Origin: an uncultured Candidatus Bathyarchaeia archaeon | GTDB taxonomy: Archaea; Thermoproteota; Bathyarchaeia; Bathyarchaeales; Bathyarchaeaceae | Assembly: GCA_964618655.1 (NCBI GenBank) | Contig: CAZUFG010000002.1 | Span: 1-46,329, forward strand | Length of the DNA stretch: 46,329 nucleotides | Direction of reading: 5' to 3' | Part shown: piece by piece, positions 4,101 through 32,820 of the stretch | How the letters are laid out: every line of letters begins with the position of its first letter | How positions within the stretch are numbered: position 1 is the stretch's first letter | The notes under the pieces: generated by a model | What the model saw: the letters and a program-made list of their open reading frames with translations, nothing else | What the model was told of the DNA's origin: nothing | Databases searched by the model: none | Made by a program: the position numbers and the translations under genes

Positions 4101-4119
4101 CCACTATATCTCTCAACCT

Positions 4120-4176
4120 CATATTTGCAGCATATTAGGATCATGTATGGGATGGTCTAGGGGCGTGTGCGCGTGT
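4120..4176 (-). repeat. 57-nt dispersed intergenic repeat, copy 1 (inverted relative to 21498-21554)
   Basis: The reverse complement matches 21498-21554 at 50 of 57 positions by hand alignment, and 37 of the first 39. It contains the CTAGACCATCCCATA core and a 14-nt alternating purine/pyrimidine tract (4163-4176). Confidence 0.85.
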
Positions 4177-4278
4177 CTGAAAAGCCCGCATACTCTTGCA
4201 AAAATTTTAAGTCTTCTCCAAACATAACAACCAAACAAAACTATAGAAAAAACTTCCATCCAGCTAGAGCTGACTACA

Positions 4279-19185: not shown

Positions 19186-19417
19186 TTGATGACGAGGATT
19201 AGCGCGCCGTGGGAAGTAAAGCGAGAGCTTGTGGTTAAGGCTGAGGAAGAAACTGACCCACGCTTTGGACATATGCCAGACAAGCGACCTTTACAGGAAT
19301 ACATGAAGTTTGGAATAATCAACCTAGACAAGCCAGCAGGTCCGTCGAGCCACGAAGTTACAGCGTGGATGAAGCGCATCTTAGGCGTTGAGCAGGCTGG
19401 ACACGGCGGGACCCTAG
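19186..19417 (+). CDS. cbf5: Pseudouridine synthase Cbf5 (H/ACA RNP catalytic subunit), exon 1
   Basis: FGIINLDKPAGPSSHEVTAWMKRILGVEQAGHGGTL aligns with the Cbf5/TruB motif I-II region. The exon ends with the first base of the catalytic Asp codon. TTG 19186 or ATG 19189 could be the start. Confidence 0.9.
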
Positions 19418-19446
19418 AAGCCTACTTAGCATAGATGGCTAGGGAA
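19418..19446 (+). other. 29-nt bulge-helix-bulge (BHB) intron within the cbf5 coding sequence
   Basis: Canonical hBHBh' fold. Helices are 19408-19411/19448-19451, 19412-19415/19441-19444 and 19419-19422/19437-19440, with 3-nt bulges at 19416-19418 and 19445-19447. Removing the intron restores GTLDPKVTGVLP in frame. The intron carries an in-frame TAG. Confidence 0.88.
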
Positions 19447-20336
19447 ATCCCAAAGTGACGGGTGTTCTGCCCATCGCCCTAGAAGAAGCCACGAAGGTGA
19501 TTCAGGCTCTCCTCCTTTCAGGGAAGGAATACGTCTGTGTTATGAGACTCCATTCTGAAGTGCCCGAAGACAGGGTTCGGGCTGTTTTAGCCGAGTTTTG
19601 CGGGGTAATTTACCAACGTCCGCCCCTTCGAGCCTCAGTTAAGCGGAGACTGAGGACGCGAAAAATCTATTACAGCAACCTTCTTGAGATGAGTGGGAAG
19701 AACGTTCTTTTTAGGGTTGGATGCGAAGCTGGGACCTACATACGGAAACTCTGCTACGATTTGGGTGAGGCGCTTGGCTGTGGAGCCCACATGCAGGAGC
19801 TCCGCCGAACTCGATCTGGACCATTAGTTGAAGAAGAAGGGCTTGTAACACTGCACGACGTGTCCTATTTGTTTGGGGAATGGCAAGAAACGAAAGATGA
19901 GACTCTGCTTAAGAAGTTTATAATGCCCATGGAGAGGGCACTGGAACTACTTCCGAAAGTTTACATACGTGACTCTGCCGTAGACGCGGTTTGTCACGGA
20001 GCCCACCTCTCTGCGCCGGGCGTCTTATCTCTGGAGACGAAGATAAAACCTGGTGATGCGGTGGTTGTGTTTACTCTGAAGGGTGAGGCTGTGGCGTTGT
20101 CGAAAGCCCTAGCGTCTACGGAGGAAATTTTAAGGATGGAGCATGGGCTGGTGGCTAAAACTCAGCGGGTTCTGATGCCTCGCGGCTTCTATCCCAAAAT
20201 GTGGCGCAGCGGTTCAAAAAAGCTAAAGAACACCCATAAACCTTCTATTCATGACTGGCGAAAAAGCCGGGGTATCCTAGGGCAGAAAAACAGACAAGAC
20301 TGCGGGAAGTCCGGTAGGGAGCAGATTCAATCCTGA
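19447..20336 (+). CDS. cbf5: Pseudouridine synthase Cbf5, exon 2 (catalytic and PUA domains); the tail reads into the tRNA-Ser gene
   Basis: (D)PKVTGVLPIALEEATKV..., YQRPPLRASVKRRLRTR, GTYIRKLCYDLG and a PUA domain ending ...RVLMPRGFYPKMW. The stop TGA at 20334-20336 lies inside tRNA intron 2. Confidence 0.9.
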
Positions 20337-20421
20337 ACGAAGCTTATGCCTGGAGTTGTCTAGCTTAGACAGCCTGTGGCCCTTCGGGGCCGCGTGGGTT
20401 CAAATCCCACCCCCGGCGCCA
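20266..20421 (+). tRNA. tRNA-Ser (anticodon GGA) with three BHB introns (20281-20309, 20325-20347, 20356-20370) and an encoded CCA
   Basis: Hand-folded. The spliced 89-nt product is GCCGGGG-UA-UCCU-AGUCCGGUA-GGGA-G-CAGGC-CUGGAGA-GCCUG, then a long variable arm (GGCCC-UUCG-GGGCC), GUGGG-UUCAAAU-CCCAC, CCCCGGC and G-CCA. All stems pair and U33, G18G19 and discriminator G73 are present. Each intron is flanked by a 4-bp central helix with 3-nt bulges cut after the second bulge nucleotide. Confidence 0.85.
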
Positions 20422-20816
20422 ACAACATTGTCGAGGATGAACCCCCATGGTCTGCTATTTCCATTTTCTGACAAGAATTTTGATTCTGGCCTCTTTAAAC
20501 GGAGCCCACCACAAGCTTCTTCAACAAAACAAAACCAGCCTCAAAGTCCGATTTCAACCCTCCCGCTAGACTCCCTTCTAGGCTAACTCGCAAATTTTTT
20601 CTTCTGGGTCAGAATCAAAGGACACCTCTACAAAGGCTACCATGAATGCCCACTCTGCGGCAGACAAACCACTTAAGGCCCTTTATTGTTTAACCTCACA
20701 AATCGCTTTAATGATTCGGAATCTGAATTAAACAGATTAACTCTCCATATTTTATCTTCACAAACTTAATTTTTAACTCTTTCCAGAATTATTAATGCAA
20801 CACAGGAGACTGTTAA

Positions 20817-20978
20817 ATGAAAACCAAGAAAGCCGTCATCGTAATCCTACTAGTTAAGGAAAGTCAGTTGAAATCCAATGAGGAGATTGAGAAGGAAATA
20901 TTTGAAAGCCTTTCGAAAGGTGTGCCCAGAATCCCATGGCTCGCAGAAGTTGAAAAAGTCACAGTGTGGGAAAGATAA
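20817..20978 (+). CDS. Small hypothetical protein (53 aa)
   Basis: Below the track size cutoff. ATG preceded by GGAGAC. Sequence is MKTKKAVIVILLVKESQLKSNEEIEKEIFESLSKGVPRIPWLAEVEKVTVWER. No family recognised. Confidence 0.35.
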   Translation: MKTKKAVIVILLVKESQLKSNEEIEKEIFESLSKGVPRIPWLAEVEKVTVWER

Positions 20979-21111
20979 AGGTCGCCTTTGAATTATAACT
21001 TACAAATATTCTACATCTGATTCTGAATAATCTTTCGAGACGAAAAACTTAAAAACTGTTCAAATGCAAATTTGAAGCCCCCAATAGGGGGAACTACTGG
21101 AGAGTCTCGCA

Positions 21112-21456
21112 ATGCAAAATGTGGTTTTAAGCGAAGCGTTGGAAGATAAAGTGTTTAAAGACATTCAAGCAAGGATTGTTAAAAGTTTCTTAGACGTGAT
21201 GGTACTCATGGAATTGAGGAATAAACCGCTTGGCGGATACAATGTCATCGCATTCATCTACAAAAAATTGAATATTCTACTCAGTTCTGGCACGGTTTAT
21301 TCTCAGCTCTATTATCTTGAAAGGAACGGGTTGATAAAAGCCCATCCAAATCAGAGAAAAAGGGAGTACACTTTGACTGAAAAAGGCAAAGAAACCGTGA
21401 GAGCCATTCTGAATATTCGAGACAAAGTCAAAGTTCTGGTACAATATATAATCTAA
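21112..21456 (+). CDS. PadR-family winged-helix transcriptional regulator
   Basis: LMELRNKPLGGYNVIAFI...SSGTVYSQLYYLERNGLIKAH...REYTLTEKGKE is the PadR signature. Confidence 0.85.
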   Translation: MQNVVLSEALEDKVFKDIQARIVKSFLDVMVLMELRNKPLGGYNVIAFIYKKLNILLSSGTVYSQLYYLERNGLIKAHPNQRKREYTLTEKGKETVRAILNIRDKVKVLVQYII

Positions 21457-21497
21457 AAAAACTCTAACCCCCCATTTCTCTTACATCAAGAAAATAC

Positions 21498-21554
21498 ACA
21501 CGCGCACACGCTCCTAGACCATCCCATATATGATCCAACTAGGATCCAAATATG
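21498..21554 (+). repeat. 57-nt dispersed intergenic repeat, copy 2
   Basis: ACACGCGCACACGCTCCTAGACCATCCCATATATGATCCAACTAGGATCCAAATATG matches the reverse complement of 4120-4176 at 50 of 57 positions. Confidence 0.85.
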
Positions 21555-21640
21555 TCACGCCCACTACGCCACATTCTCAAAAAACGAGAACTGCCAGGAT
21601 CAGAAAAAAAGGGAAGATTGCGGGGGATATCACCCCGCTT

Positions 21641-21668
21641 GCGTGGGTTCAAATCCCCCCCGGCGCCA
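21641..21668 (+). pseudogene. Truncated tRNA-like fragment (T-arm, acceptor 3' strand and CCA) duplicating the 3' end of tRNA-Ser
   Basis: GCGTGGGTTCAAATCCC-CCCCGGCGCCA equals 20392-20421 except for a 2-nt deletion that breaks the T-stem. No matching 5' acceptor strand lies upstream. It is preceded by a hairpin (21620-21638) and a sequence resembling tRNA-Ser intron 1. Confidence 0.7.
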
Positions 21669-21721
21669 AAAATATCTTTTTCAACAAACCCGCAGTCTAG
21701 GATCTGAATGTTTAGGGAGTT

Positions 21722-22348
21722 TCATTTAAGTGGATTCACATTCTTCTCTACATCGACTTCTTCTGCCCAAAAGACCCATTTTTCTCCATTTCTAACTGGT
21801 ATCTCTGGGAAAAAGCCTTCTCGTTCAAACTTCTCCCTTATCAAGTCGGTAATCTTCTTGTATAAGAAGAAGGTTAGATCTTCAAAAGTCCATCTTCTTT
21901 TGGGCAGACTGGTTCTGTCAAAATTAGTTTTCAATCGATCCTTGTTTGTCTTTATGATTTTCGCTACCTCTCCAATGATCTTAGTGAGAATGGGTTCTAG
22001 GGTCTCCAGATCTGACTTCAAGACTACTGGAAAACTGGGCGAATAGTATTTTTCCCTTTTGAACGCTCTTCCGCTTTCGGGAACCTCAACTTCCTTAATT
22101 AAACCTTCGTTTAACAAATCAGCAACATGTTTGTAGATGGCTGGCTGTGACAGCCCTATTTCCTTCGCAAGTTGAGTCACGGTTTTCGGCTCCTTGTAGA
22201 TTTTGTTAATGATGATTTGGCGAGTTTCTGACGATAATGAGCCAGACCTGCTGACATAAGACCAGGGATCTTCTATGGAGTTTATGCAACTGCAAGAAAA
22301 TTTCAATATGTGTGTTTCACCGTTTCTTTTGCTCATTTGTTGCGTCAC
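21722..22348 (-). CDS. ArsR/TrmB-like winged-HTH transcriptional regulator with an uncharacterised C-terminal domain
   Basis: TRQIIINKIYKEPKTVTQLAKEIGLSQPAIYKHVADLLNEGLIKE is an ArsR-type HTH. 208 aa. Confidence 0.75.
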   Translation of the reverse strand: MTQQMSKRNGETHILKFSCSCINSIEDPWSYVSRSGSLSSETRQIIINKIYKEPKTVTQLAKEIGLSQPAIYKHVADLLNEGLIKEVEVPESGRAFKREKYYSPSFPVVLKSDLETLEPILTKIIGEVAKIIKTNKDRLKTNFDRTSLPKRRWTFEDLTFFLYKKITDLIREKFEREGFFPEIPVRNGEKWVFWAEEVDVEKNVNPLK

Positions 22349-22472
22349 CGTGAGAGAATAAATAACCGCAAGGTTAATAACCTTTCCGTTATAATAATAG
22401 AGAACAAGAAGGAGGGAGACTGTAATAAAGAAGAGCAGTCATATCAAGAAGATTCCGCATATCACCATTGGC

Positions 22473-22835
22473 GTGTCAGATTTAAAAAAGTCTGTGTCTT
22501 TCTATCAGGATGTTGTCGGTCTTGAGAAATTAGGCGAATGGCCCGCTTACGCACTTTTTGACGCCGCCGGAGTGACGTTTGGCTTGGAGCCAAAAGCTAA
22601 ACTGGATATTTGCTTTCTCGTCGATGACCTGGACAAAGCCTATCAAAATCTCAAAGATAAAGGAGCCAAATTTGTTACTCCACCGAAAGATCAATCATGG
22701 GGTGCCCAAGCCGCTACTTTCTTTGACCCTGACGGAAACAGAGTCACCATTGAAACGTTCCACTGTAAAGTCTGCGGCAAAACCTGTCAGAGTTATCGCG
22801 AGTTCCTTGAAGAACACCTAAGAAAACACAAATAA
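22473..22835 (+). CDS. Glyoxalase/bleomycin-resistance (VOC) family protein with a C-terminal C2H2-like zinc-finger tail
   Basis: VSDLKKSVSFYQDVVGLE...ATFFDPDGNRVTIE is a VOC fold. The tail is FHCKVCGKTCQSYREFLEEHLRKHK. Family similarity seems to extend upstream of the GTG (IPHITIG), so the start is uncertain; the frame is open from 22401. Confidence 0.75.
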   Translation: MSDLKKSVSFYQDVVGLEKLGEWPAYALFDAAGVTFGLEPKAKLDICFLVDDLDKAYQNLKDKGAKFVTPPKDQSWGAQAATFFDPDGNRVTIETFHCKVCGKTCQSYREFLEEHLRKHK

Positions 22836-22968
22836 ATTGTCAAAATGCCTAAGGGGCACATTATCCCGAACACCTTGCTTCCATCGAGCCTCGCTGGCTG
22901 TGAGCCTTACAACTACAAGTTGTTTAAACATCAAAAATGTCGCGATTGACTAATGCTGAGGGATCAGT

Positions 22969-23934
22969 GTGGATTGGAAAATGTCGTTAAAGAAGGATGT
23001 ATTGCAGTGGTTGCTGGATGGAGAACCCTGGGTCATTTATCGCACATTGACATGGCTCTTAGATAAGGACGAAAAAGATAACTCAGTGATGGCAGCAAGA
23101 GCGGCAATTCCAAACCACCCATTGATAAAGAAGATTTTTGCAGGTCTAAACGAGGATGGCTATTGGGGAAAGCCAAAGGACATTCACACTTGGTGGCCTA
23201 AGAAGGACACAACCTTCTGGCTACTTCCGATGTTGGGAGATTTCGGGTTTACAATAGAAGATAGAAGAATTGCTAGAGCCTGCGAATACGTGTTCAGCAC
23301 CCAACTCCAATCTGGCGGGTTCGGATGGGATCCGCCAACAAAACCCAGCGATTGCCACAGCTCCATCATAACTCAATCTTTAGCAAAATTGGGTCTCATA
23401 GGAGACTCTAGACTACAGAATGCTTATGACTGGCTCATCAGAAGACAGCGTCTTGACGGTGGGTTCTGGTGTAAGGACACTGGGCAGATTGGCGGACCGA
23501 GAGAGAAGGAGCCCAGTTGCGCTATGGCTACAATGTATGTGCTAGGAGCGTTAACTCAGAATCCCAAACTTCGAAGCAGCGAAGTTGCTAGGAGAGGAGT
23601 TGATTTTCTTCTTGGATGCTGGGAAAACAGAGGGAAGATAAAGTATGCGGGTCACGATAGTCAAGTTGGAACTGGTTGGGAGAAACTGAAGTACCCGTTC
23701 ACTGACTACAAAATCTTGAAGTTTCTGGACGTTCTGTCTCAGTTTGAATACGCCAAGCAGAGGCTTCAAGAATCAGAAATGGTCAACATACTCCTCTCAA
23801 AACAAGACGAGATAGGAAGGTTTACACCCGAATCGATCCATAAAGTGTGGTCTGATTTTGACTTTGGACAAAAAGAAAAGCCTTCCAGATGGATCACCCT
23901 CTTGGTTTTAAGAATATTGAAGAAAATAACTTAG
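22969..23934 (+). CDS. Prenyltransferase/squalene-cyclase-repeat (alpha/alpha-toroid) protein
   Basis: It carries recurrent QxxDGGW-type repeats: LNEDGYWG, TQLQSGGFGW and RRQRLDGGFW. 321 aa. Function unknown. Confidence 0.65.
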   Translation: MDWKMSLKKDVLQWLLDGEPWVIYRTLTWLLDKDEKDNSVMAARAAIPNHPLIKKIFAGLNEDGYWGKPKDIHTWWPKKDTTFWLLPMLGDFGFTIEDRRIARACEYVFSTQLQSGGFGWDPPTKPSDCHSSIITQSLAKLGLIGDSRLQNAYDWLIRRQRLDGGFWCKDTGQIGGPREKEPSCAMATMYVLGALTQNPKLRSSEVARRGVDFLLGCWENRGKIKYAGHDSQVGTGWEKLKYPFTDYKILKFLDVLSQFEYAKQRLQESEMVNILLSKQDEIGRFTPESIHKVWSDFDFGQKEKPSRWITLLVLRILKKIT

Positions 23935-24020
23935 CAAGCCCAGGAGTCTGTCTTGGCGTCTCACTAAAAATCTTTATGCCAGGTATTCTAAAGAAAGAGG
24001 TCAATTGTGGAGGTGTGTTT

Positions 24021-25226
24021 ATGGTGAAGATAGCCATTAGTGAAGGAGAATACAAGCGGAGAATCAGTAACGTCTTGGAAGAGTTGAAGAAGCGGAAACT
24101 AGACGCCCTTTACTTGACCAGTGGCACGAGTTTTCTCTATCTCACGGGATACTCCTACATTACAACGGAGAGGCCAGCGGCACTCATCATTCCAGTCGAA
24201 GGCGAAATAGCCTTTATTGGACCAGCCCTCGAAACTGACCATGTTCCCCTAAAAACTAAGCTTGTCAAGAATATCAAGACTTATCCAGACTATCCAGGCG
24301 AAAAACACCCAATCGAACATTTCTCCATTTTCCTTAAAGAGTTAGGCTTAGACAACAAGAAGATTGGCATAGACAATATGGCGGGAGCGGCTGGAATCTG
24401 GGGCTATAAAGGTCCTCGAATTACGGAAAAGTTTCCCAGCGCCAAGTTTGTTGAAGCCAAAGACATTGTTGAAGACATGCGGTTGATCAAGTCGAAGGAA
24501 GAGGTTGAACTGATCATAGAGAGCGCTAAATGGGGGAATCTGGCGCATTCGTTGCTTCAAGAATATACAGAACCAGGCTTGTGGGATGTAGAAATATCCA
24601 TGCGGGCTTCCCATGAGGCTTCAGTTGCCATGAAACGAGCTTTGGGACCAGATTATGAGCCCTGCAAATGGGGTGATTCTCCAGCAGGCGCGGGTTTCAG
24701 AGGGCAGGTTGGCGCAATGTCTGCCATTCCCCACTCAATCGGCACAAAAAGAGTGATCAAAGTCGGAGACGTCATCGTGTCAGGCGCTTCCGCAGATGTT
24801 GGCGGATACTGTAGCGAACTCGAACGAACCATGATTGTCGGACAGCCCACCGAAACCCAGAAACGATATTTCGAGGTCATGTTGAAGGCTCAAGACGCGG
24901 GATTAGCAACTTTCCGACCTGGCGCAAGATGCAGCGACGTAGACAAGACGACAGTGAAAGTTTTTCAGAAGGCAGGCTATGGCGCACTAATAAGGCATCA
25001 TAGTGGTCATGGGCTGGGCTTAGAAGGACATGAGCCGCCGTGGCTCGACGTGGGCGACGACACAGTTATGATGCCAGGCATGGTCTTCAGTTGTGAGCCA
25101 GGCATATACAAGCCAGGATACGCTGGGTTTAGGCACTCCGACACGGTGGTAATAACTGAGGACGGCGCTGAGATAATCACCTATTATCCCCGAGATTTGG
25201 AGTCGCTCACCATCCGCAAGAGATGA
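24021..25226 (+). CDS. M24-family metallopeptidase (Xaa-Pro dipeptidase/aminopeptidase P-like)
   Basis: ATG at 24021 after GGAGG (the track ORF starts at 23889 inside the previous gene). It has a creatinase-like N-domain and HHSGHGLGLEGHEPP...SCEPGIY metal-ligand motifs. Confidence 0.88.
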   Translation: MVKIAISEGEYKRRISNVLEELKKRKLDALYLTSGTSFLYLTGYSYITTERPAALIIPVEGEIAFIGPALETDHVPLKTKLVKNIKTYPDYPGEKHPIEHFSIFLKELGLDNKKIGIDNMAGAAGIWGYKGPRITEKFPSAKFVEAKDIVEDMRLIKSKEEVELIIESAKWGNLAHSLLQEYTEPGLWDVEISMRASHEASVAMKRALGPDYEPCKWGDSPAGAGFRGQVGAMSAIPHSIGTKRVIKVGDVIVSGASADVGGYCSELERTMIVGQPTETQKRYFEVMLKAQDAGLATFRPGARCSDVDKTTVKVFQKAGYGALIRHHSGHGLGLEGHEPPWLDVGDDTVMMPGMVFSCEPGIYKPGYAGFRHSDTVVITEDGAEIITYYPRDLESLTIRKR

Positions 25227-25253
25227 GCCATCCGCCTTTCAGAAACACGGTGA

Positions 25254-25679
25254 GTGGCAATGATAAAAGAGAGCCTTAGGAATCAGGATGAACGTCTTCT
25301 TAATGCTGCACTGGAAGCCATGAAGAACGCTCATGTTATCTGGGGATTTGCAGTTGGCGCAGCAGTTTTGGCTGAAGACAACAGCGTTTACGAAGGATGT
25401 AATGTTGAAAGTCGAATCTCTGGGCTTGGTGTTTGTGCCGAAAGATGCGCCATAGACCATGCTGTTCTGCATGGCAAGAAGAGAATTACGGCTGTAGCCG
25501 TTGTGATGGAAGCCGAAAACGTTAATGGGCCTAGACCGTGCGGAGCGTGTCTCCAATACATCAACGATTTTTCAGAGGGCAAGGCTAGGATAGTCATGGC
25601 AAAAGTGAAGGATGGCAAGATACTTCCGAAGGGCATCGAGGTGAAACTAATTAAGGAAATGTTGCCGTATCCACTTTAA
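25254..25679 (+). CDS. cdd: Cytidine deaminase
   Basis: The zinc motifs CAERCAI and PCGACLQYI are present, and the size is typical for Cdd. Confidence 0.88.
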   Translation: MAMIKESLRNQDERLLNAALEAMKNAHVIWGFAVGAAVLAEDNSVYEGCNVESRISGLGVCAERCAIDHAVLHGKKRITAVAVVMEAENVNGPRPCGACLQYINDFSEGKARIVMAKVKDGKILPKGIEVKLIKEMLPYPL

Positions 25680-25696
25680 CAGAGGAGGTTTAAGTC

Positions 25697-26461
25697 GTGA
25701 AAGTTAAGAGATTAACGTTGGAAGACCTGAAGAAAGCCTATCCGTGCATGCACAACTTGCCGCCCCAGTTTGCTTTTTGGGAAGCATTCGTTCCTGAGTC
25801 TCAGCAGTGGTTGAGAGCTAACCTGGACAAGCATGTGGAGGGTTACCATCTGTTTGACGGAGAAAATGTTGTCGGTCACATTTATTATGCGCCCTCTGAA
25901 AAGATTCTTGCGCCCTTTAAAACTGAACCCCACGTGGCTTTCATCTATTGTGTCTACTTAGCGGAGAGGTATAAGGGAAAGGGTCATGGAAAAGAAATGT
26001 TCGACGCCTTTAAAGAAGAAATGCGGAAGCAAGGTTTTAAGGGGATTCTAGTCAATGCCACGGACTTCCCCGAATACATGCACCAATCTCACTTTGAGAA
26101 GCAGGGCTTCAAAGTCATTCTGGAATACAGCCCAACCATGAGACTCATGTACTTCCCCATCACGAAGAAAACGATCGAGGTTAAGCCGATGGAACTGAAG
26201 TACAAACCCACAACTAAGAAAGTTGAGGTCACATTGTTCAAGAACTTCTTTTGCCCAGTCGGTGTGGCTATGCACTACAAGGTTATGGAAGTGGCAAAAA
26301 CTTTCGGAGACAAAGTGAAAATCGTGGAGATAGAGGCAACAAAAGAGGCGATGGAAAAGTATGGTGCAGCAGACGGAATTCTGGTTAATGGCAAAATAAA
26401 AATGATGGGTCCAGTTTCTGAAGAAGAGATACGAAAAGCCATTCAAGAAGAGATAAAATAA
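25697..26461 (+). CDS. GNAT N-acetyltransferase fused to a thioredoxin-fold (Thioredoxin_3-like) domain lacking CxxC
   Basis: The N-terminal half has YLAERYKGKGHGKEMFDAFKEEMRKQGFKGILV, a GNAT acetyl-CoA motif. The C-terminal 80 aa (KVEVTLFKNFFCPVGV...KIVEIEATKEAMEKYG...LVNGKIKMMGPVSEEEIRKAI) has a thioredoxin-like beta-alpha pattern with a single Cys. Confidence 0.65.
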   Translation: MKVKRLTLEDLKKAYPCMHNLPPQFAFWEAFVPESQQWLRANLDKHVEGYHLFDGENVVGHIYYAPSEKILAPFKTEPHVAFIYCVYLAERYKGKGHGKEMFDAFKEEMRKQGFKGILVNATDFPEYMHQSHFEKQGFKVILEYSPTMRLMYFPITKKTIEVKPMELKYKPTTKKVEVTLFKNFFCPVGVAMHYKVMEVAKTFGDKVKIVEIEATKEAMEKYGAADGILVNGKIKMMGPVSEEEIRKAIQEEIK

Positions 26462-26489
26462 CCGCAGTTCAACAACAGGCATAAGCACA

Positions 26490-26903
26490 ATGAATAACCT
26501 ACTGAAATATTGGTTTCCTTTGATAGCGGTCTTGACTCTAATCTTCATCGGTTCTTCTTTGCCTGGTCAGATATTAGCGCAAGAGCCTCTTTTGCCCACG
26601 CTACCGAGCACGTTAGAGCATATGGCTGAGTTTTTCATTCTGGGCGTGTTTATGTATCGGGCATTAAAGGCAACAAAGGTTGGCAGATTTAGCCTAGAAT
26701 TGGCGGTTCTTTTAGGAAGCTTTTACGGCTTCACTGATGAGTTTCATCAACTTTTCGTTCCAGGACGAGTGTGTAGCCCACTTGACCTTGTTTTCGATAT
26801 TATTGGTTGCGTCATCGGTGTATTACTCATGCGATTAGTTGTTTCTGTAAGGAGGATAAAGCAGACGGACAAAGATTTTACCCATAGTGCGATACGTTTA
26901 TGA
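26490..26903 (+). CDS. VanZ-like membrane protein
   Basis: 137 aa with four TM segments. FTDEFHQLFVPGRVCSPLDLVFDIIGCVIG is the VanZ signature. Confidence 0.8.
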   Translation: MNNLLKYWFPLIAVLTLIFIGSSLPGQILAQEPLLPTLPSTLEHMAEFFILGVFMYRALKATKVGRFSLELAVLLGSFYGFTDEFHQLFVPGRVCSPLDLVFDIIGCVIGVLLMRLVVSVRRIKQTDKDFTHSAIRL

Positions 26904-27913
26904 GCAAACTAATCCTAGTGTCTCTTTCCAACTCTGGTGGAAACGACGTGTCTAAGGCTCCTATAATTCAAACACAGGATCTCACCAAGAAATTCGGAAA
27001 ACTGACTGCAGTTGACCACCTAAACCTCACTATAGAAGAGGGCGAAATCTTCGGCTTACTTGGACCAAACGGTGCAGGCAAAACAACGACCATACTGATG
27101 CTCACGACCGTAATCCGACCAACCGAAGGAACAGCCACAGTAGACGGATTCGACATCAAAAAATCACCCCATAAAGCCCGTGAACTGATTGGTGTCTGCT
27201 TCCAAGAACCTAAGCTTCTCTGGATTAGCACCGCATGGGACGTTCTTAACTGGCATGCCAAGGTCTGTGGGCTTTCCACTCAAGAACGCAAGAGAAGAGT
27301 CAAGTGGGTACTGGAAGAATTGAACATGTGGGATGACCGTCGCAAGAGCGTTCACGCCCTCTCTGGAGGGATGAAGAAACGTGTAGAAATCGGAAAAATC
27401 CTCATCCAGAGGCCAAAGATAGCCATTGTAGACGAACCTACCGCCCAGATCGATGTGGTTGGAAAACACAGAATCTGGAATATGCTCCGTGACTTGAGGG
27501 AGGAGGGGTCAACGATAATTTTGGCGACGAACGAGCTTCAAGAAGCGGACATCCTTTCGGAGAGAGTTGCCATAATGCATAAGGGCAAGCTGCTCGTGTG
27601 CAACACGCCTAAGAAGCTGAAGGACAGCATACCAGGCGGCGACGTCATGGAAGTTCAGCTGGAAGAAGAGGCTCCAGACAGGGTTTTTACTGAACTGCAA
27701 GCTTTCAAGGAAGTTGTCAACGTCAAAAAAATAGGTTCCACCCAACTGCTGCTGTACCTAAACCAAGTTGAGGCTGTGATGCCAAAAATAATGAAACTAT
27801 TCTATGACCGTAGCCTGCGAATATCTTCCATACACATGAGTGAGCCCTCCTTAGATGATGTGTTTGCGCACTTTACTGGCTTGACTCTGGAAGAGGCACA
27901 AAAAGGGTATTAG
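26900..27913 (+). CDS. ABC transporter ATP-binding protein (ABC-2/DrrA-like exporter)
   Basis: Walker A is GPNGAGKTT, the signature is LSGGMKKRV and Walker B is IAIVDEPTAQID. ATGA overlap with the VanZ gene. Confidence 0.92.
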   Translation: MSKLILVSLSNSGGNDVSKAPIIQTQDLTKKFGKLTAVDHLNLTIEEGEIFGLLGPNGAGKTTTILMLTTVIRPTEGTATVDGFDIKKSPHKARELIGVCFQEPKLLWISTAWDVLNWHAKVCGLSTQERKRRVKWVLEELNMWDDRRKSVHALSGGMKKRVEIGKILIQRPKIAIVDEPTAQIDVVGKHRIWNMLRDLREEGSTIILATNELQEADILSERVAIMHKGKLLVCNTPKKLKDSIPGGDVMEVQLEEEAPDRVFTELQAFKEVVNVKKIGSTQLLLYLNQVEAVMPKIMKLFYDRSLRISSIHMSEPSLDDVFAHFTGLTLEEAQKGY

Positions 27914-27918
27914 AGGCT

Positions 27919-28713
27919 GTGGCGGTGGGCTTAAGAAGACTCTGGTTTGTGATTGAACGCGACCTGCGCATGTTCATTCAGTATAAGTTTCTGTTGATCA
28001 TGCGTGCGATATGGTTTGTTGCGCAAGTAGCCTTGTTTGGGCTTATTGTTAACAAGATGGTTCAAGACGCTGCTACAGAGGTGGGTATAAGCTACTTTAA
28101 TTATTATGTGGCTGGAGTAACCATAATAACATTGTATTCCACAGCCATGTTCATTGGGTACGACATTTTTGAGGAAGCTGAACACGGCGTGTTTGAATAT
28201 TTGCTAACGCTTCCCGTGAGCCGAAGAGAACTTGTGTTGGGGCGGTCGATAGGCGGAGGGCTGCGCAGTTTCATCTATGTTGGACCTTTGCTTGTGGTTT
28301 CCTTGTTTATTTTGGGCGTTTCAAATCCGATTTATTTGCTTGTTGCGGTTGCTTCTCTGTTCTTGTTCGCTTTTGGTGTTTCAGGTATGAGCATCACGTT
28401 AGCCGTGGCTATGAAGTCTGGCGACAAGTTCGACATAGTTACAGGTGTGTTGGACGCCTTAATTGTGCGGTTGAGCACCACGATGTATCCTGTGCTTTAC
28501 TTGCAGCGGGCTATGCCTGCCTACGCTTCAATCGCTAATTTTAATCCGCTCACTTATGCCTCTGACTTGTTCCGCTGGGGTACTGGAGTTGAGGGGGTTC
28601 TTCAATTCAGTCCGTTAGTTGGTGTTCTTGGGCTTTTCGTGTTCTTTTTTGCCTTCACCTTTGTTGGTGTGGTTTTCTACGAGAGAAGGCTTGAAGGAGG
28701 TAGCTGGGAGTGA
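27919..28713 (+). CDS. ABC-2 type transporter permease
   Basis: 264 aa with six TM segments. It directly follows the ATPase gene. Confidence 0.8.
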   Translation: MAVGLRRLWFVIERDLRMFIQYKFLLIMRAIWFVAQVALFGLIVNKMVQDAATEVGISYFNYYVAGVTIITLYSTAMFIGYDIFEEAEHGVFEYLLTLPVSRRELVLGRSIGGGLRSFIYVGPLLVVSLFILGVSNPIYLLVAVASLFLFAFGVSGMSITLAVAMKSGDKFDIVTGVLDALIVRLSTTMYPVLYLQRAMPAYASIANFNPLTYASDLFRWGTGVEGVLQFSPLVGVLGLFVFFFAFTFVGVVFYERRLEGGSWE

Positions 28714-29474
28714 AAGCTATTTTGCACGTCATCGAGTACGATTTTAGGAATTTCTTTCGTTTCAGATGGTTTGTTATCGGGCTCATCGCTATGAATTTGG
28801 CTGACCTTTTCATTAGCGCCGTGGTTTTTACTCAGATGACGAGTGTCGTGGATTATTTTCGGTTCTTTGCTCCGGGTTTGGCGGTTGTTGGGCTTTTTGC
28901 GTCGGCGTTCATGATTGGCAGAGAAATCAACATGGAGGTGCGTCGAGAGATTCATCATTACATGCTTAGTTTGCCCATGACTCGGACTGAGTTGGCTGTT
29001 GGGCGGGTTTTGGCTGGCGGGTTGAGGGGCATGCTTTACATGACGCCTTTGTTGATAACTAACTTCGTCGTGCTTCGTTTTCCTTCTCTGCCTCAACTTT
29101 TGCTGATACTTTTGACGCTGTTGTTGTTAGCCATTGGGATTTCTGGGGTCAGCATTTCGATCGCGGTTTCGACCACGAGTTTTGAGAAGTTTGTGACTGC
29201 TAGGGGCGTCGTGTACTATATGCTGTTCTTCTGTAGTTCGGTCTTCTACCCGTTGTCGGTCATACAAGTACTCAATACAAAGGGGCTGGGACCGTTGGTC
29301 ACTTTTGCGCAGGTCAACCCCCTGACCAACGGTTCGGACCTGATTCGTTCCTTCCTGCTTGATTCGCCTGAGTACGTTTTTTCACCGTTGATGTTGTTGA
29401 ACGTAGCCATCTTCTGTGGGATATTCGCCCTTCTCGCAACCCTTGCATACGCGAAGATTCTTGAGAGGCAATAG
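28710..29474 (+). CDS. ABC-2 type transporter permease (second subunit)
   Basis: 254 aa with six TM segments. It looks paralogous to the preceding permease (LPMTRTELAVGRVLAGGLRG versus LPVSRRELVLGRSIGGGLRS). GTGA overlap. Confidence 0.8.
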   Translation: MKAILHVIEYDFRNFFRFRWFVIGLIAMNLADLFISAVVFTQMTSVVDYFRFFAPGLAVVGLFASAFMIGREINMEVRREIHHYMLSLPMTRTELAVGRVLAGGLRGMLYMTPLLITNFVVLRFPSLPQLLLILLTLLLLAIGISGVSISIAVSTTSFEKFVTARGVVYYMLFFCSSVFYPLSVIQVLNTKGLGPLVTFAQVNPLTNGSDLIRSFLLDSPEYVFSPLMLLNVAIFCGIFALLATLAYAKILERQ

Positions 29475-29658
29475 AGCGTAGGGAACGTTTGTTAACGAGA
29501 CAGGTTCCTGAAGCATAAGCACCGTTCCAATGTTAACTTCCACAAAGTCTCTTTTTTCCTATTTCCTTCACAACTTCCTTATTTTCTAAAAATCTCCAAG
29601 AATCTTCCTTATTCAGCGAATGGAAATAGAGCAAAAATCTAGATTTATTCTTACAGAA

Positions 29659-29671
29659 ATTATTATATAAG
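29659..29671 (+). promoter_or_regulatory. TATA-like box for the AT-rich module (probably a leaderless transcript)
   Basis: ATTATTATATAAG is centred about 23 nt upstream of the ATG at 29688. Confidence 0.45.
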
Positions 29672-29687
29672 CAGCACCTATTTACTA

Positions 29688-30005
29688 ATGAACCGAACTA
29701 CTATGAAGAAAGCGGAGCGGTCACGTCTAGAAAGTCAAATTCAAATTTCTCTAGAAGAATTGCGAATCAAATTATGTTTTAAAGAAGAAGTTGAAGAAAA
29801 TAACCTGTTTTTAGCAGCGGGTCTTACTTATTTCTTTGGAGTGCTTTTTGCATGTTTGACCGAAGTAGTTGAGAGATATTTTGGTGTAGTTTTGATTTTG
29901 ACCGCAATAATGATAGTTTGGTATTTGAGAGACAAAAGAAAAGAGATACGAAGAAAATTTGAGAAAGAAATAGAATCGCTATCAAAAGGAGAGCGGAAAA
30001 TCTAA
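29688..30005 (+). CDS. Small membrane protein (charged N-terminal segment, two TM helices, basic tail)
   Basis: 105 aa. The hydrophobic stretches are LFLAAGLTYFFGVLFACL and FGVVLILTAIMIVWYL. It lies in the AT-rich region. No family recognised. Confidence 0.55.
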   Translation: MNRTTMKKAERSRLESQIQISLEELRIKLCFKEEVEENNLFLAAGLTYFFGVLFACLTEVVERYFGVVLILTAIMIVWYLRDKRKEIRRKFEKEIESLSKGERKI

Positions 30006-30037
30006 ATTTACGTTAGTGCAACATTATTTGGATTCGT

Positions 30038-30145
30038 ATGCTCACGTGGGAAATTCAAGTAACATGGGTTCTCATCTCAGTCTTCATTGCAATTTTCCTA
30101 ATTGCTGAAAGAATCCGAAGACGAAAGTTACAACAATCTGCCTAA
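30038..30145 (+). CDS. Possible 35-aa single-TM micro-protein
   Basis: Not in the track. Sequence is MLTWEIQVTWVLISVFIAIFLIAERIRRRKLQQSA, a TM helix followed by a basic anchor. Coding status unproven. Confidence 0.3.
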   Translation: MLTWEIQVTWVLISVFIAIFLIAERIRRRKLQQSA

Positions 30146-30276
30146 TAATAACGAACTTAAAGCCTTAATATCCTTTAGAGGTGAACAGAAATAGAACCAG
30201 AAGTTCACATAATTGAGAAGTTTTTCAAGAACGATAGGTTTTTGTGGAGACTACGACTAATAACCATTGATTCAAA

Positions 30277-31140
30277 ATGTCCTACTATCATGTTATTGTA
30301 AGTTTAAAAAGCAGACCTCATAGAGGTGCTATTGAAGAAAATCTTCTCGAACAAGATTTAATGAATATAATAGTCAAGCCTTATAACAAAGGTGAGCCAT
30401 TCAAATGCGGTGATACTGTAGTAAATCGAGACGACATATCATACATAAAGATAACCGAAAGTGAGCGAATTCTTGGTCGTGACCATGTGTTCGTGTCACC
30501 TCAAAATGCCTTTGCAAATCTTTGGCATGCAATAAGTCAACAAGAAGATGTTACGGATAAATTCCTTAAAACGATTTCGCACAGAAAAAAAGAAACTGTA
30601 AAGGAAATTACACCTTTTTCAAAAAACAAAGTGTTTATTGTTCATGGCAGAGACCACGAACCAATGAAGGAACTAAAAGAGATGCTTTATGATTTTGGTC
30701 TCAAACCTATAGTTCTTCATGAGCAACCGAGTGGAAGCAGAACAATAGTTGAGAAACTTGAAAAATACTCTGATGTTGGCTATGCCTTTGTAATTCTAAC
30801 TCCAGATGATGTAGGATGCTTAAGAGACGAATTTAGGATAAACACAATGAAGTTCCTTGCAATTTGTGAAGATTCGAGAAAAGTGAAACAAGCCATAAAT
30901 AGTTTTAAAGAGATCGTAAAGACACCAAAACAAAGAGCACGCCAAAACGTTGTTTTGGAATTTGGCTATTTCATGGGATTGCTTGGTCGTGACCGAGTGT
31001 GTTGTTTACTAAAGGGAGACGTCGAAAAACCTTCTGACATGCATGGAATAGTGTACATACCTTTCAATGACTCAGTTGAAGAAGTTCGAGTCAAAGTAAT
31101 GAAGGAACTTATGGAGGCTGGCTACGAAATCAAAATGTGA
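30277..31140 (+). CDS. TIR-like domain protein (COG4271 / PF10137 Cap12-PycTIR-type) with an unknown 115-aa N-terminal domain
   Basis: The C-terminal domain has KVFIVHGRDHEPMKELKEMLYDFGLKPIVLHEQPSGSRTIVEKLE...YAFVILTPDDVG...ARQNVVLEFGYFMGLLGRDRVCCLLKGDVEKPSDMHGIVYIPF. This matches the remembered family consensus (VFIVHG, TPDD, RQNVxxElGYF with the catalytic Glu, PSDxxG). Confidence 0.75.
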   Translation: MSYYHVIVSLKSRPHRGAIEENLLEQDLMNIIVKPYNKGEPFKCGDTVVNRDDISYIKITESERILGRDHVFVSPQNAFANLWHAISQQEDVTDKFLKTISHRKKETVKEITPFSKNKVFIVHGRDHEPMKELKEMLYDFGLKPIVLHEQPSGSRTIVEKLEKYSDVGYAFVILTPDDVGCLRDEFRINTMKFLAICEDSRKVKQAINSFKEIVKTPKQRARQNVVLEFGYFMGLLGRDRVCCLLKGDVEKPSDMHGIVYIPFNDSVEEVRVKVMKELMEAGYEIKM

Positions 31141-31183
31141 GAAATGCAAAAGAGTTATAGCAGAACCTTTTTACCTCACAACC

Positions 31184-31879
31184 TTAGCGATGAACTACTT
31201 CCTTTTTGATGACTTTACAGAAAATGCTGGATTCGTCCACTTCTATGATCGCCGCGTTCAACCCGAATTCATCGAACAACTCAACGAATTGGTCACCGCT
31301 GACAGTAGTAGCTCTAAAACCATCCTTGCACACGATTGTTCCATCACGCGTCTCCTCATCATCTATTTCTCCTATAAGACCAAACCGTGATTGTTTTCTA
31401 AACCATCCTAGACGCGCTTCCCATATTCTCGGAGAATAGCTCGAAAAGAGAATAGTCCCATCGTCTTTTGTCACCCTTATGGATTCGGCGATGAGACGTT
31501 TCTTGTCGACCCCAAACGCGGATATGCCGTTTTGAATACAAAATACCGCATCAAAAGTACGTGAACGAAATGACATCTGAGACGCATCCATCAGAAACAC
31601 CGTATAGTTTTGACAACTGTCCATGTATGACCTCGCAAGTTCTAAACTTTCCTTTGAAATGTCATTTCCAACAATCCAAGAAACAAACTCTGACACCGCT
31701 TTCATAACTCTACCATAACCACATCCAAGTTCGAGAACCAAACCTGTACCACGAAGATTGGAAATGACGAATTGGATTTCTGCGTCAAGATATTGTTTGA
31801 TTCTCGTAGGAGCTATCTCATAACATCTAAAGAGCTTATCAGCTGAAAGCTTCTCTCTGTAATAAGTGCCTTTGTGCAT
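31184..31879 (-). CDS. Class I SAM-dependent methyltransferase
   Basis: Motif I is VLELGCGYGR, followed by DAVFCIQNG. 231 aa. It converges on the TIR-like gene. Confidence 0.85.
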   Translation of the reverse strand: MHKGTYYREKLSADKLFRCYEIAPTRIKQYLDAEIQFVISNLRGTGLVLELGCGYGRVMKAVSEFVSWIVGNDISKESLELARSYMDSCQNYTVFLMDASQMSFRSRTFDAVFCIQNGISAFGVDKKRLIAESIRVTKDDGTILFSSYSPRIWEARLGWFRKQSRFGLIGEIDDEETRDGTIVCKDGFRATTVSGDQFVELFDEFGLNAAIIEVDESSIFCKVIKKEVVHR

Positions 31880-32293
31880 AGAACCTTTTAAGAAAAATTC
31901 AAGATTTAAATTCGTCGAGTGTCTTGCCTTCCAAAACAGGCTACTCTCAAAAATTTTTCTTCTCGTCTTTCACGTTTTTGCAGAGATAAGATATATAAAA
32001 GAGGCAACACATTAAACCTTCCCTTTCTCTCTTTGGTTTGCATCTTGTTATGGCGCAACCTGAAGGTGAAAAATAAAAATTCCAGAGAATGAAGGCTAAG
32101 TAAATGTGTAAGATTAGAAGTGGAGAAAGAACTTGTCGGAAATGTCCAGCAAGAATATATTGCACAGATAAGAAAACTAGGAGAAGATAATCAAACCCTC
32201 TCAAGTGTTTAATCTGGATAATCCATCCAGACAAATCCCTAAATCAACATACCCTAAACAGTTTTTGTAAATAACAGTTTCTGCAGAGATAGG

Positions 32294-32304
32294 TTTATAT
32301 AAAA
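32294..32304 (+). promoter_or_regulatory. TATA box of the uS13 operon promoter
   Basis: TTTATATAAAA lies about 50 nt upstream of the ATG at 32353, preceded by a purine-rich BRE-like GAGATAGG. Confidence 0.5.
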
Positions 32305-32352
32305 TCCCCCTCACTCACGTAGATAGCCTAAAACAATAACGGACGACCAAAA

Positions 32353-32820
32353 ATGTCAAAAGAATTCAGGCACATCACACGAATCGCCGAAAAAGACCTA
32401 GACGGCACTTTAAAAGTAGAATACGCCCTAAGCAAAATAAAGGGTATAGGAATCGGACTTGCCTCCGTCATTCTGAAAAAAACAGGCATCAACCCCGAAA
32501 CACGCTTGGGCTTCTTATCCGAAGCCGAAATCAAAATGCTAGAAGAAATCGTAAAATCACCCACAAAATACGGCATCCCAAGTTGGCTCCTAAACCGACC
32601 AAAAGACAGCGAAACAGGAAAGGATACACATCTCGTCAGCTCAGAACTAGTTCTCCGAACAAAACTTGACATTGACCAAATGAAAAAAATCAAATCCTGG
32701 CGAGGATTCCGCCACGCCCACGGACTGAAAGTGCGAGGACAACGAACCCGAACAACAGGCAGAAGCGGAAAAGCCATAGGTGTTAAGAAAAAGGAATTCG
32801 TGCGCAAACCCGGAGAATAG
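32353..32820 (+). CDS. rps13: 30S ribosomal protein uS13
   Basis: FRHITRIAEKDLDGT...IKGIGIGLA is the S13 N-terminus. It is first in the conserved S13-S4-S11-RpoD order. Confidence 0.94.
   Translation: MSKEFRHITRIAEKDLDGTLKVEYALSKIKGIGIGLASVILKKTGINPETRLGFLSEAEIKMLEEIVKSPTKYGIPSWLLNRPKDSETGKDTHLVSSELVLRTKLDIDQMKKIKSWRGFRHAHGLKVRGQRTRTTGRSGKAIGVKKKEFVRKPGE

Follow-up and report, generated by a model that had tools for sequence, protein, structure and literature searches.

A predicted endonuclease-spliced intron in the catalytic aspartate codon of cbf5 in Bathyarchaeia

The DNA analyzed here, hereafter the window, is a stretch of 46,329 nucleotides (nt) from an uncultured Candidatus Bathyarchaeia archaeon (contig CAZUFG010000002.1) and carries on its forward strand a gene for the H/ACA pseudouridine synthase Cbf5. 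With a probability that we place at about 0.9, this cbf5 gene is functional and is interrupted, after the first base of its catalytic Asp codon, by a genuine 29-nt bulge-helix-bulge (BHB) mRNA intron that would be spliced by the tRNA-splicing endonuclease EndA and the ligase RtcB. A first-pass annotation of the window had proposed a protein-coding BHB intron in cbf5, and its fold, its junction and its conservation in 60 further species all argue in favor of the proposal.

Exon 1 (19186 to 19417, with a start at TTG 19186 or ATG 19189) encodes ...KPAGPSSHEV...AGHGGTL and ends with a G that opens the catalytic Asp codon. The intron, AAGCCTACTTAGCATAGATGGCTAGGGAA, extends from 19418 to 19446 and is delimited by its fold, by in silico splicing and by homologous inserts in 60 other species. 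Exon 2 (19447 to 20336) opens with AT-CCC-AAA-GTG, which completes the Asp codon and continues with Pro-Lys-Val. Both exons were assigned from the in silico splice, the domains of the product and its alignment with Pyrococcus abyssi Cbf5 (2AUS), and exon 1 also from the list of open reading frames (ORFs). In this list the gene appears, at the coordinates already reported at first pass, as two ORFs in different frames, 19186 to 19434 (ending with ...AGHGGTLEAYLA*) and 19455 to 20336. Read-through of exon 1 is halted within the intron by an in-frame TAG, located as annotated at 19432 to 19434. Deletion of 19418 to 19446 in silico produces a 1122-nt in-frame coding sequence whose product contains the DKCLD, TruB_N, TruB_C_2 and PUA domains, the first two supporting exon 1. 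The product matches 2AUS with an E-value of 1.9e-129 and aligns with it ungapped across the junction AGHGGTLDPKVTGVLP (AGHGGTL-D-PKVTGVLP). The intron splits the Asp78 codon of the GTLDP motif as G|AT (junction CTA G|AT CCC), and its excision regenerates this motif in frame, as had been claimed. Because an A follows both cut sites, deletion of 19419 to 19447 yields an identical mRNA; the BHB cleavage rule selects 19418 to 19446.

The motif spans 19408 to 19451 on the forward strand and was defined by its predicted fold, by pair counts with controls and by an RNAalifold consensus. It comprises an outer helix (GGGA 19408-19411 with TCCC 19448-19451), a central 4-bp helix (CCCT 19412-19415 with AGGG 19441-19444), two 3-nt bulges (AGA 19416-19418 and AAA 19445-19447), an inner helix (AGCC 19419-19422 with GGCT 19437-19440) and a 14-nt loop (19423-19436). 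From 19400 to 19460 the sequence reads GACACGGC GGGA CCCT AGA AGCC TACTTAGCATAGAT GGCT AGGG AAA TCCC AAAGTGACG, and each helix, bulge and loop of the first-pass annotation is found base for base at its given position. All 12 of the 12 pairs are Watson-Crick, in a strict helix-bulge-helix-bulge-helix arrangement. The hBHBh' motif is defined by a 3-nt bulge, a 4-bp helix and a 3-nt bulge, with flanking helices of at least 2 bp (PMC7714728); here the flanking helices h (GGGA/TCCC) and h' (AGCC/GGCT) each contain at least two Watson-Crick pairs. The ViennaRNA minimum free energy fold of 19400-19460 is exactly the proposed structure (-19.2 kcal/mol, z = -2.84), and 2 of 200 shuffled sequences are as stable. 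It consists of an 8-bp stack of the outer and central helices, a 3-nt bulge and the 4-bp inner helix, the 3-nt bulge of the 3' strand lying between the central and outer helices. The 5' bulge is thus on the 3' side of its central-helix strand and the 3' bulge abuts the exon helix, a topology that is canonical for archaeal splicing substrates. On the exon side, the helices are formed by the codons for Gly-Thr-Leu and Asp-Pro. The predicted cuts follow 19417 and 19446, each separating the second bulge nucleotide from the third, as is the rule for cbf5 introns (PMC2738675). In silico splicing at these sites gives the in-frame junction that the first-pass annotation had derived from cleavage after the second nucleotide of each bulge.

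We scanned both strands of the window for 4-4-3/3-4-4 motifs with introns of up to about 120 nt, taking the expectation from Markov-simulated sequence. With G.U pairs allowed, 107 motifs are present versus about 95 expected. When Watson-Crick pairs alone are counted, the cbf5 site is the one match on the two strands, where chance would give 0.83 (0.33 if introns are limited to 45 nt). The significance of the site lies in the coincidence, at a single nucleotide, of the motif with the junction that restores both the frame and GTLDP, together with the comparative data.

The spliced protein was scanned against one genome per GTDB species, yielding 80 loci (L001 to L080). The best matches are all metagenome-assembled genomes (MAGs) of Candidatus Bathyarchaeia or Bathyarchaeota, with 60-81% identity, and more distant matches belong to Odin-, Hod- and Promethearchaeota and to Methanosarcinales. 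An insert is present at the identical nucleotide in 60 of the 71 Bathyarchaeia species representatives (~85%), making 61 sequences with the window, and at the DNA level these inserts sit between GHGGTL-G and AY-CCN. Among the hosts is the cultured Ca. Bathyarchaeum tardum M17C-01 (CP122380.1; L017), with a 21-nt cbf5 intron. The inserts range from 18 to 40 nt, with lengths of 18 (10 sequences), 19 (4), 20 (4), 21 (16), 22 (6) and 24 nt (9); 30, 31 and 33 nt are found in two sequences each, and 26, 29, 36, 38, 39 and 40 nt in one each. Eleven Bathyarchaeia genes are free of the insert, and so is each of the eight outgroup genes that were parsed (from Asgard and Methanosarcinales, plus the mislabelled L056); this count leaves out L079, a ninth outgroup locus, which resisted parsing. 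It had been anticipated at first pass that the intron would extend the known distribution if its host lay outside the crenarchaeal orders. The host belongs to Bathyarchaeia and 60 further species share the insert with its covariation, so the extension holds. No cbf5 intron outside Crenarchaeota was found in the literature searched, which included post-2010 work on pre-mRNA splicing and left most subscription journals uncovered.

Two loci in this set come from MAGs labelled as bacterial (Candidatus Acidoferrum, Anaerolineales). L046 (DASPTR010000054.1) is an archaeal cbf5 with a 24-nt intron that clusters inside Bathyarchaeia, and L056 (JAIWAT010000001.1) is an archaeal cbf5 that clusters with Methanosarcinales. 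Both are probably mis-binned contigs.

The inserts resemble one another in the way that they close the reading frame. Their length is a multiple of 3 in 41 of 61 cases and not in the other 20, and an in-frame stop is present in 60 of 61, including all 41 of those with a multiple-of-3 length. In 50 of the 61 this stop is the third codon after the Leu at the 5' splice site, usually as GAG-GCT-TAA. The pattern suggests selection against read-through of unspliced mRNA, with the reservation that the sequences are not phylogenetically independent. An in-frame protein insertion is rejected for the window on account of the 29-nt length and the stop codon, and none of the 61 inserts can be read through as one. 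A group I or group II intron, or the insertion of a mobile element, was likewise rejected: the inserts are too short and occupy a conserved site with BHB covariation.

Covariation was measured on a fixed-register alignment (A1) of 43 distinct sequences, each made of 15 nt from either side joined by an artificial AAAA linker. With the BHB structure imposed, 93.2% of the cells are paired versus 86.4% in shuffles, and the covariation score is 0.319 versus 0.187; none of 500 shuffles reaches either value. The counts include related sequences, which is mitigated by the independent RNAalifold result and by a control in which the register was slid and the paired cells fell to 24-56%. By helix, the paired cells amount to 98.8% for the central helix, 89.5% for h and 91.3% for h'. 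Pair 6-26 of the central helix is C-G in 24 sequences, U-A in 18 and unpaired in one, a change of the Thr codon between ACC and ACT being matched by a G/A change in the intron. Double changes occur at all four pairs of the inner helix. RNAalifold, applied to the real length-variable sequences, recovers the central and inner helices together with the two 3-nt bulges; its outer helix is displaced by a small shift of register. The exon codons follow the structure as well. Intron-bearing genes use GGG (52/61), GAT (55/61) and CCC (55/61), whereas intron-less Bathyarchaeia use GGA (9/12) and GAC (11/12). The outer helix is thus matched by synonymous exon codons in intron-bearing genes alone.

These data bear directly on the possibility that the window holds a pseudogene, or a sequencing or assembly artefact, in which a 29-nt insertion or frameshift inactivates cbf5 and the hairpin is incidental. 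Such an explanation would fit a gene that reads as two ORFs in different frames and has lost its normal stop codon, as the window copy has, and one all-Watson-Crick BHB per 46 kb is close to the chance level. We nevertheless consider it very improbable, given that the same nucleotide is interrupted in 60 independently assembled species, with variable lengths and compensatory changes. Both exons are conserved (60-81% protein identity) with the four domains intact, the synonymous codons are adapted to the helix, and cbf5 occupies a conserved syntenic position.

If cbf5 is indeed spliced, EndA would cut after the second nucleotide of each 3-nt bulge, that is after 19417 and after 19446. RtcB would then join the exons to give ...ACC CUA G|AU CCC AAA..., and the intron would come free, probably in circular form. 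Translation of unspliced mRNA would end at the in-frame stop and yield only an 82-residue fragment lacking the catalytic Asp, so that active Cbf5 would depend on the EndA/RtcB machinery that matures tRNA and rRNA. A second alternative is that ribosomes bypass or frameshift over the 29 nt with no RNA splicing at all. A stable hairpin with an in-frame stop near the take-off region does superficially resemble a ribosomal bypass element, of which T4 gene 60 is an example. However, the junction lies inside a codon (G|AT) that bypassing cannot rebuild, and from the sole downstream CTA landing codon (19439-41) translation would go on with GGG AAA TCC and not with DPKV. Moreover, the EndA recognition geometry is the only constant feature of inserts that vary from 18 to 40 nt, and the crenarchaeal element in the same codon is an intron whose splicing by EndA has been established by experiment. 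Recoding is therefore, in our opinion, the most remote of the explanations discussed here.

The enzymes required for splicing are expected in the host. Archaeal splicing proceeds by EndA cleavage at BHB motifs and RtcB ligation (PMC7714728; PMC12918454). Both proteins occur in every circularized or near-complete archaeal genome analyzed, including Bathyarchaeia, and BHB-dependent rRNA circularization has been found in Bathyarchaeia transcriptomes (PMC12918454). For Crenarchaeota, Watanabe and colleagues proposed a regulatory use of splicing; that bathyarchaeal Cbf5 might be regulated in this way is speculation.

Several observations weigh against a spliced cbf5 and have to be set beside this evidence. 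Neither endA nor rtcB is among the genes of the 46-kb window, and a look-up of ten in-silico-spliced proteins by exact sequence in a collection of 15 billion proteins found none of them. BHB geometry alone is statistically ordinary in 46 kb, and the rarity of the motif was not used as evidence. Finally, the one intron-free sequence that matches a predicted spliced product closely, described below, may be genomic DNA, and its support for the intron boundaries is then indirect.

This sequence came from a search for spliced transcripts, in which 120 contiguous Cbf5 matches were compared by BLAST with the in-silico-spliced proteins. The protein P0133, on contig L082 (1568 bp; JGI 3300033528, Ga0316588_1018302), is 97.5% identical to the in-silico-spliced protein of L013, and the contig is 95.1% identical in nucleotides to L013:2621-4210 over its whole length (~1.6 kb). 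Its sequence runs on without the 21-nt intron, the junction (CTT G|AT CCC) matching the predicted cut sites to the base, and keeps the helix-adapted codons. The downstream tRNA-Ser of L082 retains its three introns, and the contig is therefore read as genomic DNA and not as cDNA. L082 would thus represent a very recent and precise loss of the cbf5 intron, a spliced transcript being less likely, and the pattern is that expected from recombination with a spliced-mRNA copy. Recombination of this kind has been discussed as a loss mechanism by Yokobori et al. (PMC2738675). Contiguous Cbf5 proteins of 70-80% identity also exist on long genomic contigs in a large protein database (e.g. P0121, on a 420-kb contig). 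In a neighbor-joining tree of Cbf5, which is a rough tree of a single gene, the window is sister to the Ca. Bathyarchaeum clade and the intron-less Bathyarchaeia fall in about five separate places.

A cbf5 intron is known from most Desulfurococcales and Sulfolobales, and none was reported for Thermoproteales, Cenarchaeum, Nitrosopumilus or Korarchaeum (PMC2738675). The crenarchaeal element, whose hosts include Aeropyrum pernix and Sulfolobus spp., is spliced by EndA in experiments (Watanabe 2002; Yoshinari 2006; Yokobori 2009, PMC2738675). These introns are 16-44 bp long, interrupt the catalytic residue's codon and mostly have 'unconventional' or relaxed motifs (PMC2738675). The intron of the window, at 29 nt and without an ORF, is of the short, ORF-less kind described by Watanabe and Yokobori. 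The intron position is not marked in the supplementary alignments of Yokobori (PMC2738675), and our crenarchaeal comparison consists of this published text and one sequence. When a Sulfolobus Cbf5 fragment from a published supplement was used as a query, no close Sulfolobus protein was retrieved, and one Sulfolobales-like exon-2 ORF (P0092) was usable. It led to the metagenomic contig L081, which reads GGG ACC CTA G|A GCCCC TTTAAT GGGGC GGGG AG|AC CCC. L081 shares with the Bathyarchaeia introns the codon, the phase, the CCCT/GGGG central helix, the AGA 5' bulge and an early in-frame TAA. It differs by an A.C mismatch in the outer helix, which is consistent with the relaxed crenarchaeal motifs. 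The comparison with published crenarchaeal introns that the first-pass annotation had called for thus places the bathyarchaeal intron in the same catalytic Asp codon and, in L081, in the same phase.

Instead of being inherited together with that of Sulfolobales and Desulfurococcales, the bathyarchaeal intron could have been inserted independently at a BHB-prone site or acquired through horizontal transfer; the splicing mechanism would be the same, and we regard the odds of such a separate origin as even. In its favor, the intervening lineages (Thermoproteales, Nitrososphaeria-type genomes and Korarchaeum) have no such intron, and neither does L069/L072, a basal pair of Bathyarchaeia. Half of the motif comes from the exon sequence GGGACCCT...TCCC itself, which forces the similarity of the intron parts that pair with the exons, and the loops and inner helices of L081 and Bathyarchaeia are not alignable. 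On the other hand, the nucleotide position, the phase, the central helix and the 5' bulge are identical, the size ranges agree, and an early in-frame TAA is found in both. Precise loss is also repeatedly easy, as illustrated by the roughly five intron-less groups in the Cbf5 tree and the one recent case, and a patchy distribution is therefore expected under common ancestry. The Sulfolobales-like Cbf5 is ~54% identical to Bathyarchaeia proteins whether or not their genes carry the intron, versus 51% for outgroups. There is thus no sign of recent gene transfer, and the lack of any special similarity between the bathyarchaeal and Sulfolobales-like proteins counts against it. Taken jointly, these points allow a reading that we put forward tentatively and hold to be somewhat improbable as a whole. 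In it, the intron is not a novelty of Desulfurococcales plus Sulfolobales: as an ancient mRNA intron, it was already carried by the ancestor that Bathyarchaeia and Thermoprotei share (deep Thermoproteota/TACK). Its retention at a single nucleotide position, almost always with an in-frame stop, would be due to the EndA/RtcB dependence that it imposed on making the H/ACA pseudouridine synthase, and recombination with spliced-mRNA copies would have removed it repeatedly.

A second candidate substrate of the splicing machinery lies at the 3' end of cbf5. A tRNA-Ser(GGA) gene with three BHB-type introns occupies 20266 to 20422 on the forward strand, as determined from in silico splicing, re-prediction with ARAGORN and comparison with relatives. 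Its introns are at 20281-20309 (D-loop), 20325-20347 (anticodon stem) and 20356-20370 (position 37/38), and its CCA is encoded at 20419-20421. Default ARAGORN and an Rfam search both miss the gene at 20266-20422; after removal of the three introns in silico, ARAGORN finds a clean 89-nt tRNA-Ser(gga). The tRNA-Leu(tag) with a single 67-nt intron called by ARAGORN -i was rejected, as both the relatives and the post-splice prediction favor the three-intron tRNA-Ser(GGA). A tRNA-Ser gene is found downstream of cbf5 in about 40 relatives, either in the three-intron form or with the 37/38 intron only. This tRNA would be a second substrate of the same splicing system in the window, one needing three excisions, and its non-canonical intron positions, in the D-loop and the anticodon stem, predict an EndA of broad specificity, of the (alpha-beta)2 or epsilon2 type.

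The two genes overlap in the window. The conserved Cbf5 sequence ends with ...YPKMW (20204), and 43 further codons up to the stop at 20334-20336 form a window-specific extension (20205-20336), by which the ORF overlaps the tRNA-Ser gene by 71 nt. In 19 of 19 relatives checked, Cbf5 stops 3-6 codons after this W, and a spacer of 40-61 nt precedes the tRNA-Ser in relatives that have it directly downstream. The stop codon of the relatives and part of this spacer are lost from the window. If cbf5 and tRNA-Ser are co-transcribed, 5' processing of the tRNA would cleave the message ahead of the Cbf5 stop codon.

The last ~35 nt of the tRNA-Ser (20392-20428) are repeated 1.25 kb downstream at 21641-21675, with 35 of 37 positions identical and a 2-nt gap. 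The repeated part comprises the T-arm, the 3' strand of the acceptor, the CCA and the 3' flank, and the interval separating the copies contains no more than a PadR-like gene (21112-21456) and one small ORF. The arrangement resembles an att-type duplication of the sort that an integrated element leaves behind. Between the tRNA-Ser and an S4-S11-RpoD cluster lie ~12 kb of accessory genes (~20430-32800). Their products include regulators of the PadR and ArsR types, a glyoxalase, an M24 peptidase, a deaminase, GNAT, VanZ and methyltransferase proteins, an ABC-2 transporter (26900-29474) and a protein resembling a CAP12/Pycsar-type TIR-domain effector (30277-31140; PF10137, E = 2.8e-35). The region is possibly a tRNA-linked genomic or defense island.

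The surroundings of cbf5 are otherwise those of a conserved archaeal arrangement, ...L22...SecY-Adk-EMC3/TMCO1-like (Pfam PF01956)-Cmk-L14e-Cbf5-tRNA-Ser, and beyond the ~12 kb of accessory genes come S4-S11-RpoD...S9-enolase-S2 and genes of the mevalonate pathway. A 57-nt inverted repeat (4120-4176 and 21498-21554; 88% complementary) has a 38-nt core expected 0 times by chance, and its intergenic arms bracket 17.3 kb with the r-protein/SecY/cbf5/tRNA-Ser block. The repeat matches nothing in Rfam, the one arm that was folded (4110-4200) gives no significant structure, and none of 82 fetched loci contains a copy.

It is extremely rare for an archaeal protein-coding gene to have an intron that is spliced by an endonuclease. 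Reviews up to 2023 name the cbf5 intron found in certain Crenarchaeota and one haloarchaeal 5'-UTR (untranslated region) element. What would be new here is a lineage, Bathyarchaeia, for a known kind of cbf5 intron, and with it an altered evolutionary picture of that kind. The finding would either overturn the inferred origin in an ancestor of Desulfurococcales and Sulfolobales or reveal a remarkable insertion hot-spot. It also provides a large natural covariation data set for an RNA structure maintained through synonymous codon choice, and accessible test systems exist in the cultured Ca. Bathyarchaeum tardum and in existing Bathyarchaeia metatranscriptomes. In practice, gene callers split or truncate cbf5 in intron-bearing Bathyarchaeia genomes. 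Since cbf5 is used as a single-copy archaeal marker, annotation and completeness estimates are affected for one of the most abundant groups of sediment archaea, and multi-intron tRNAs missed by default tRNA finders have a similar effect.

Several known systems can be compared with the bathyarchaeal intron. In eukaryotic HAC1/XBP1 splicing, the protein-only endonuclease Ire1 cuts stem-loops of an mRNA, joining is of the tRNA-ligase type and the active protein requires the reaction; there the endonuclease and the motif are unrelated and the process is stress-regulated. The likeness is one of analogy only. The introns of archaeal tRNA and rRNA have an identical BHB recognition geometry and presumably the same enzymes, whereas the cbf5 substrate is an mRNA in which the exon strands of the helix are codons, kept through synonymous sites. 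The HVO_1309 element of Haloferax volcanii is likewise an EndA-processed BHB element in an archaeal mRNA (Schwarz 2020, PMC7714728). It differs in that it lies in the 5'-UTR and interrupts no codon, in a euryarchaeon with an alpha2-type enzyme. A further counterpart is the crenarchaeal cbf5 intron, spliced by experiment where that of Bathyarchaeia is predicted to be from comparative sequence data, and hosted by Thermoprotei instead of Bathyarchaeia. The two share the gene, the Asp codon, the size range (16-44 bp versus 18-40 nt) and a cut between bulge residues 2 and 3, and are alike in their lineage-specific secondary losses. Finally, the bathyarchaeal motif conforms to the strict canonical hBHBh' form in all but a few species, whereas the crenarchaeal motifs are mostly relaxed.

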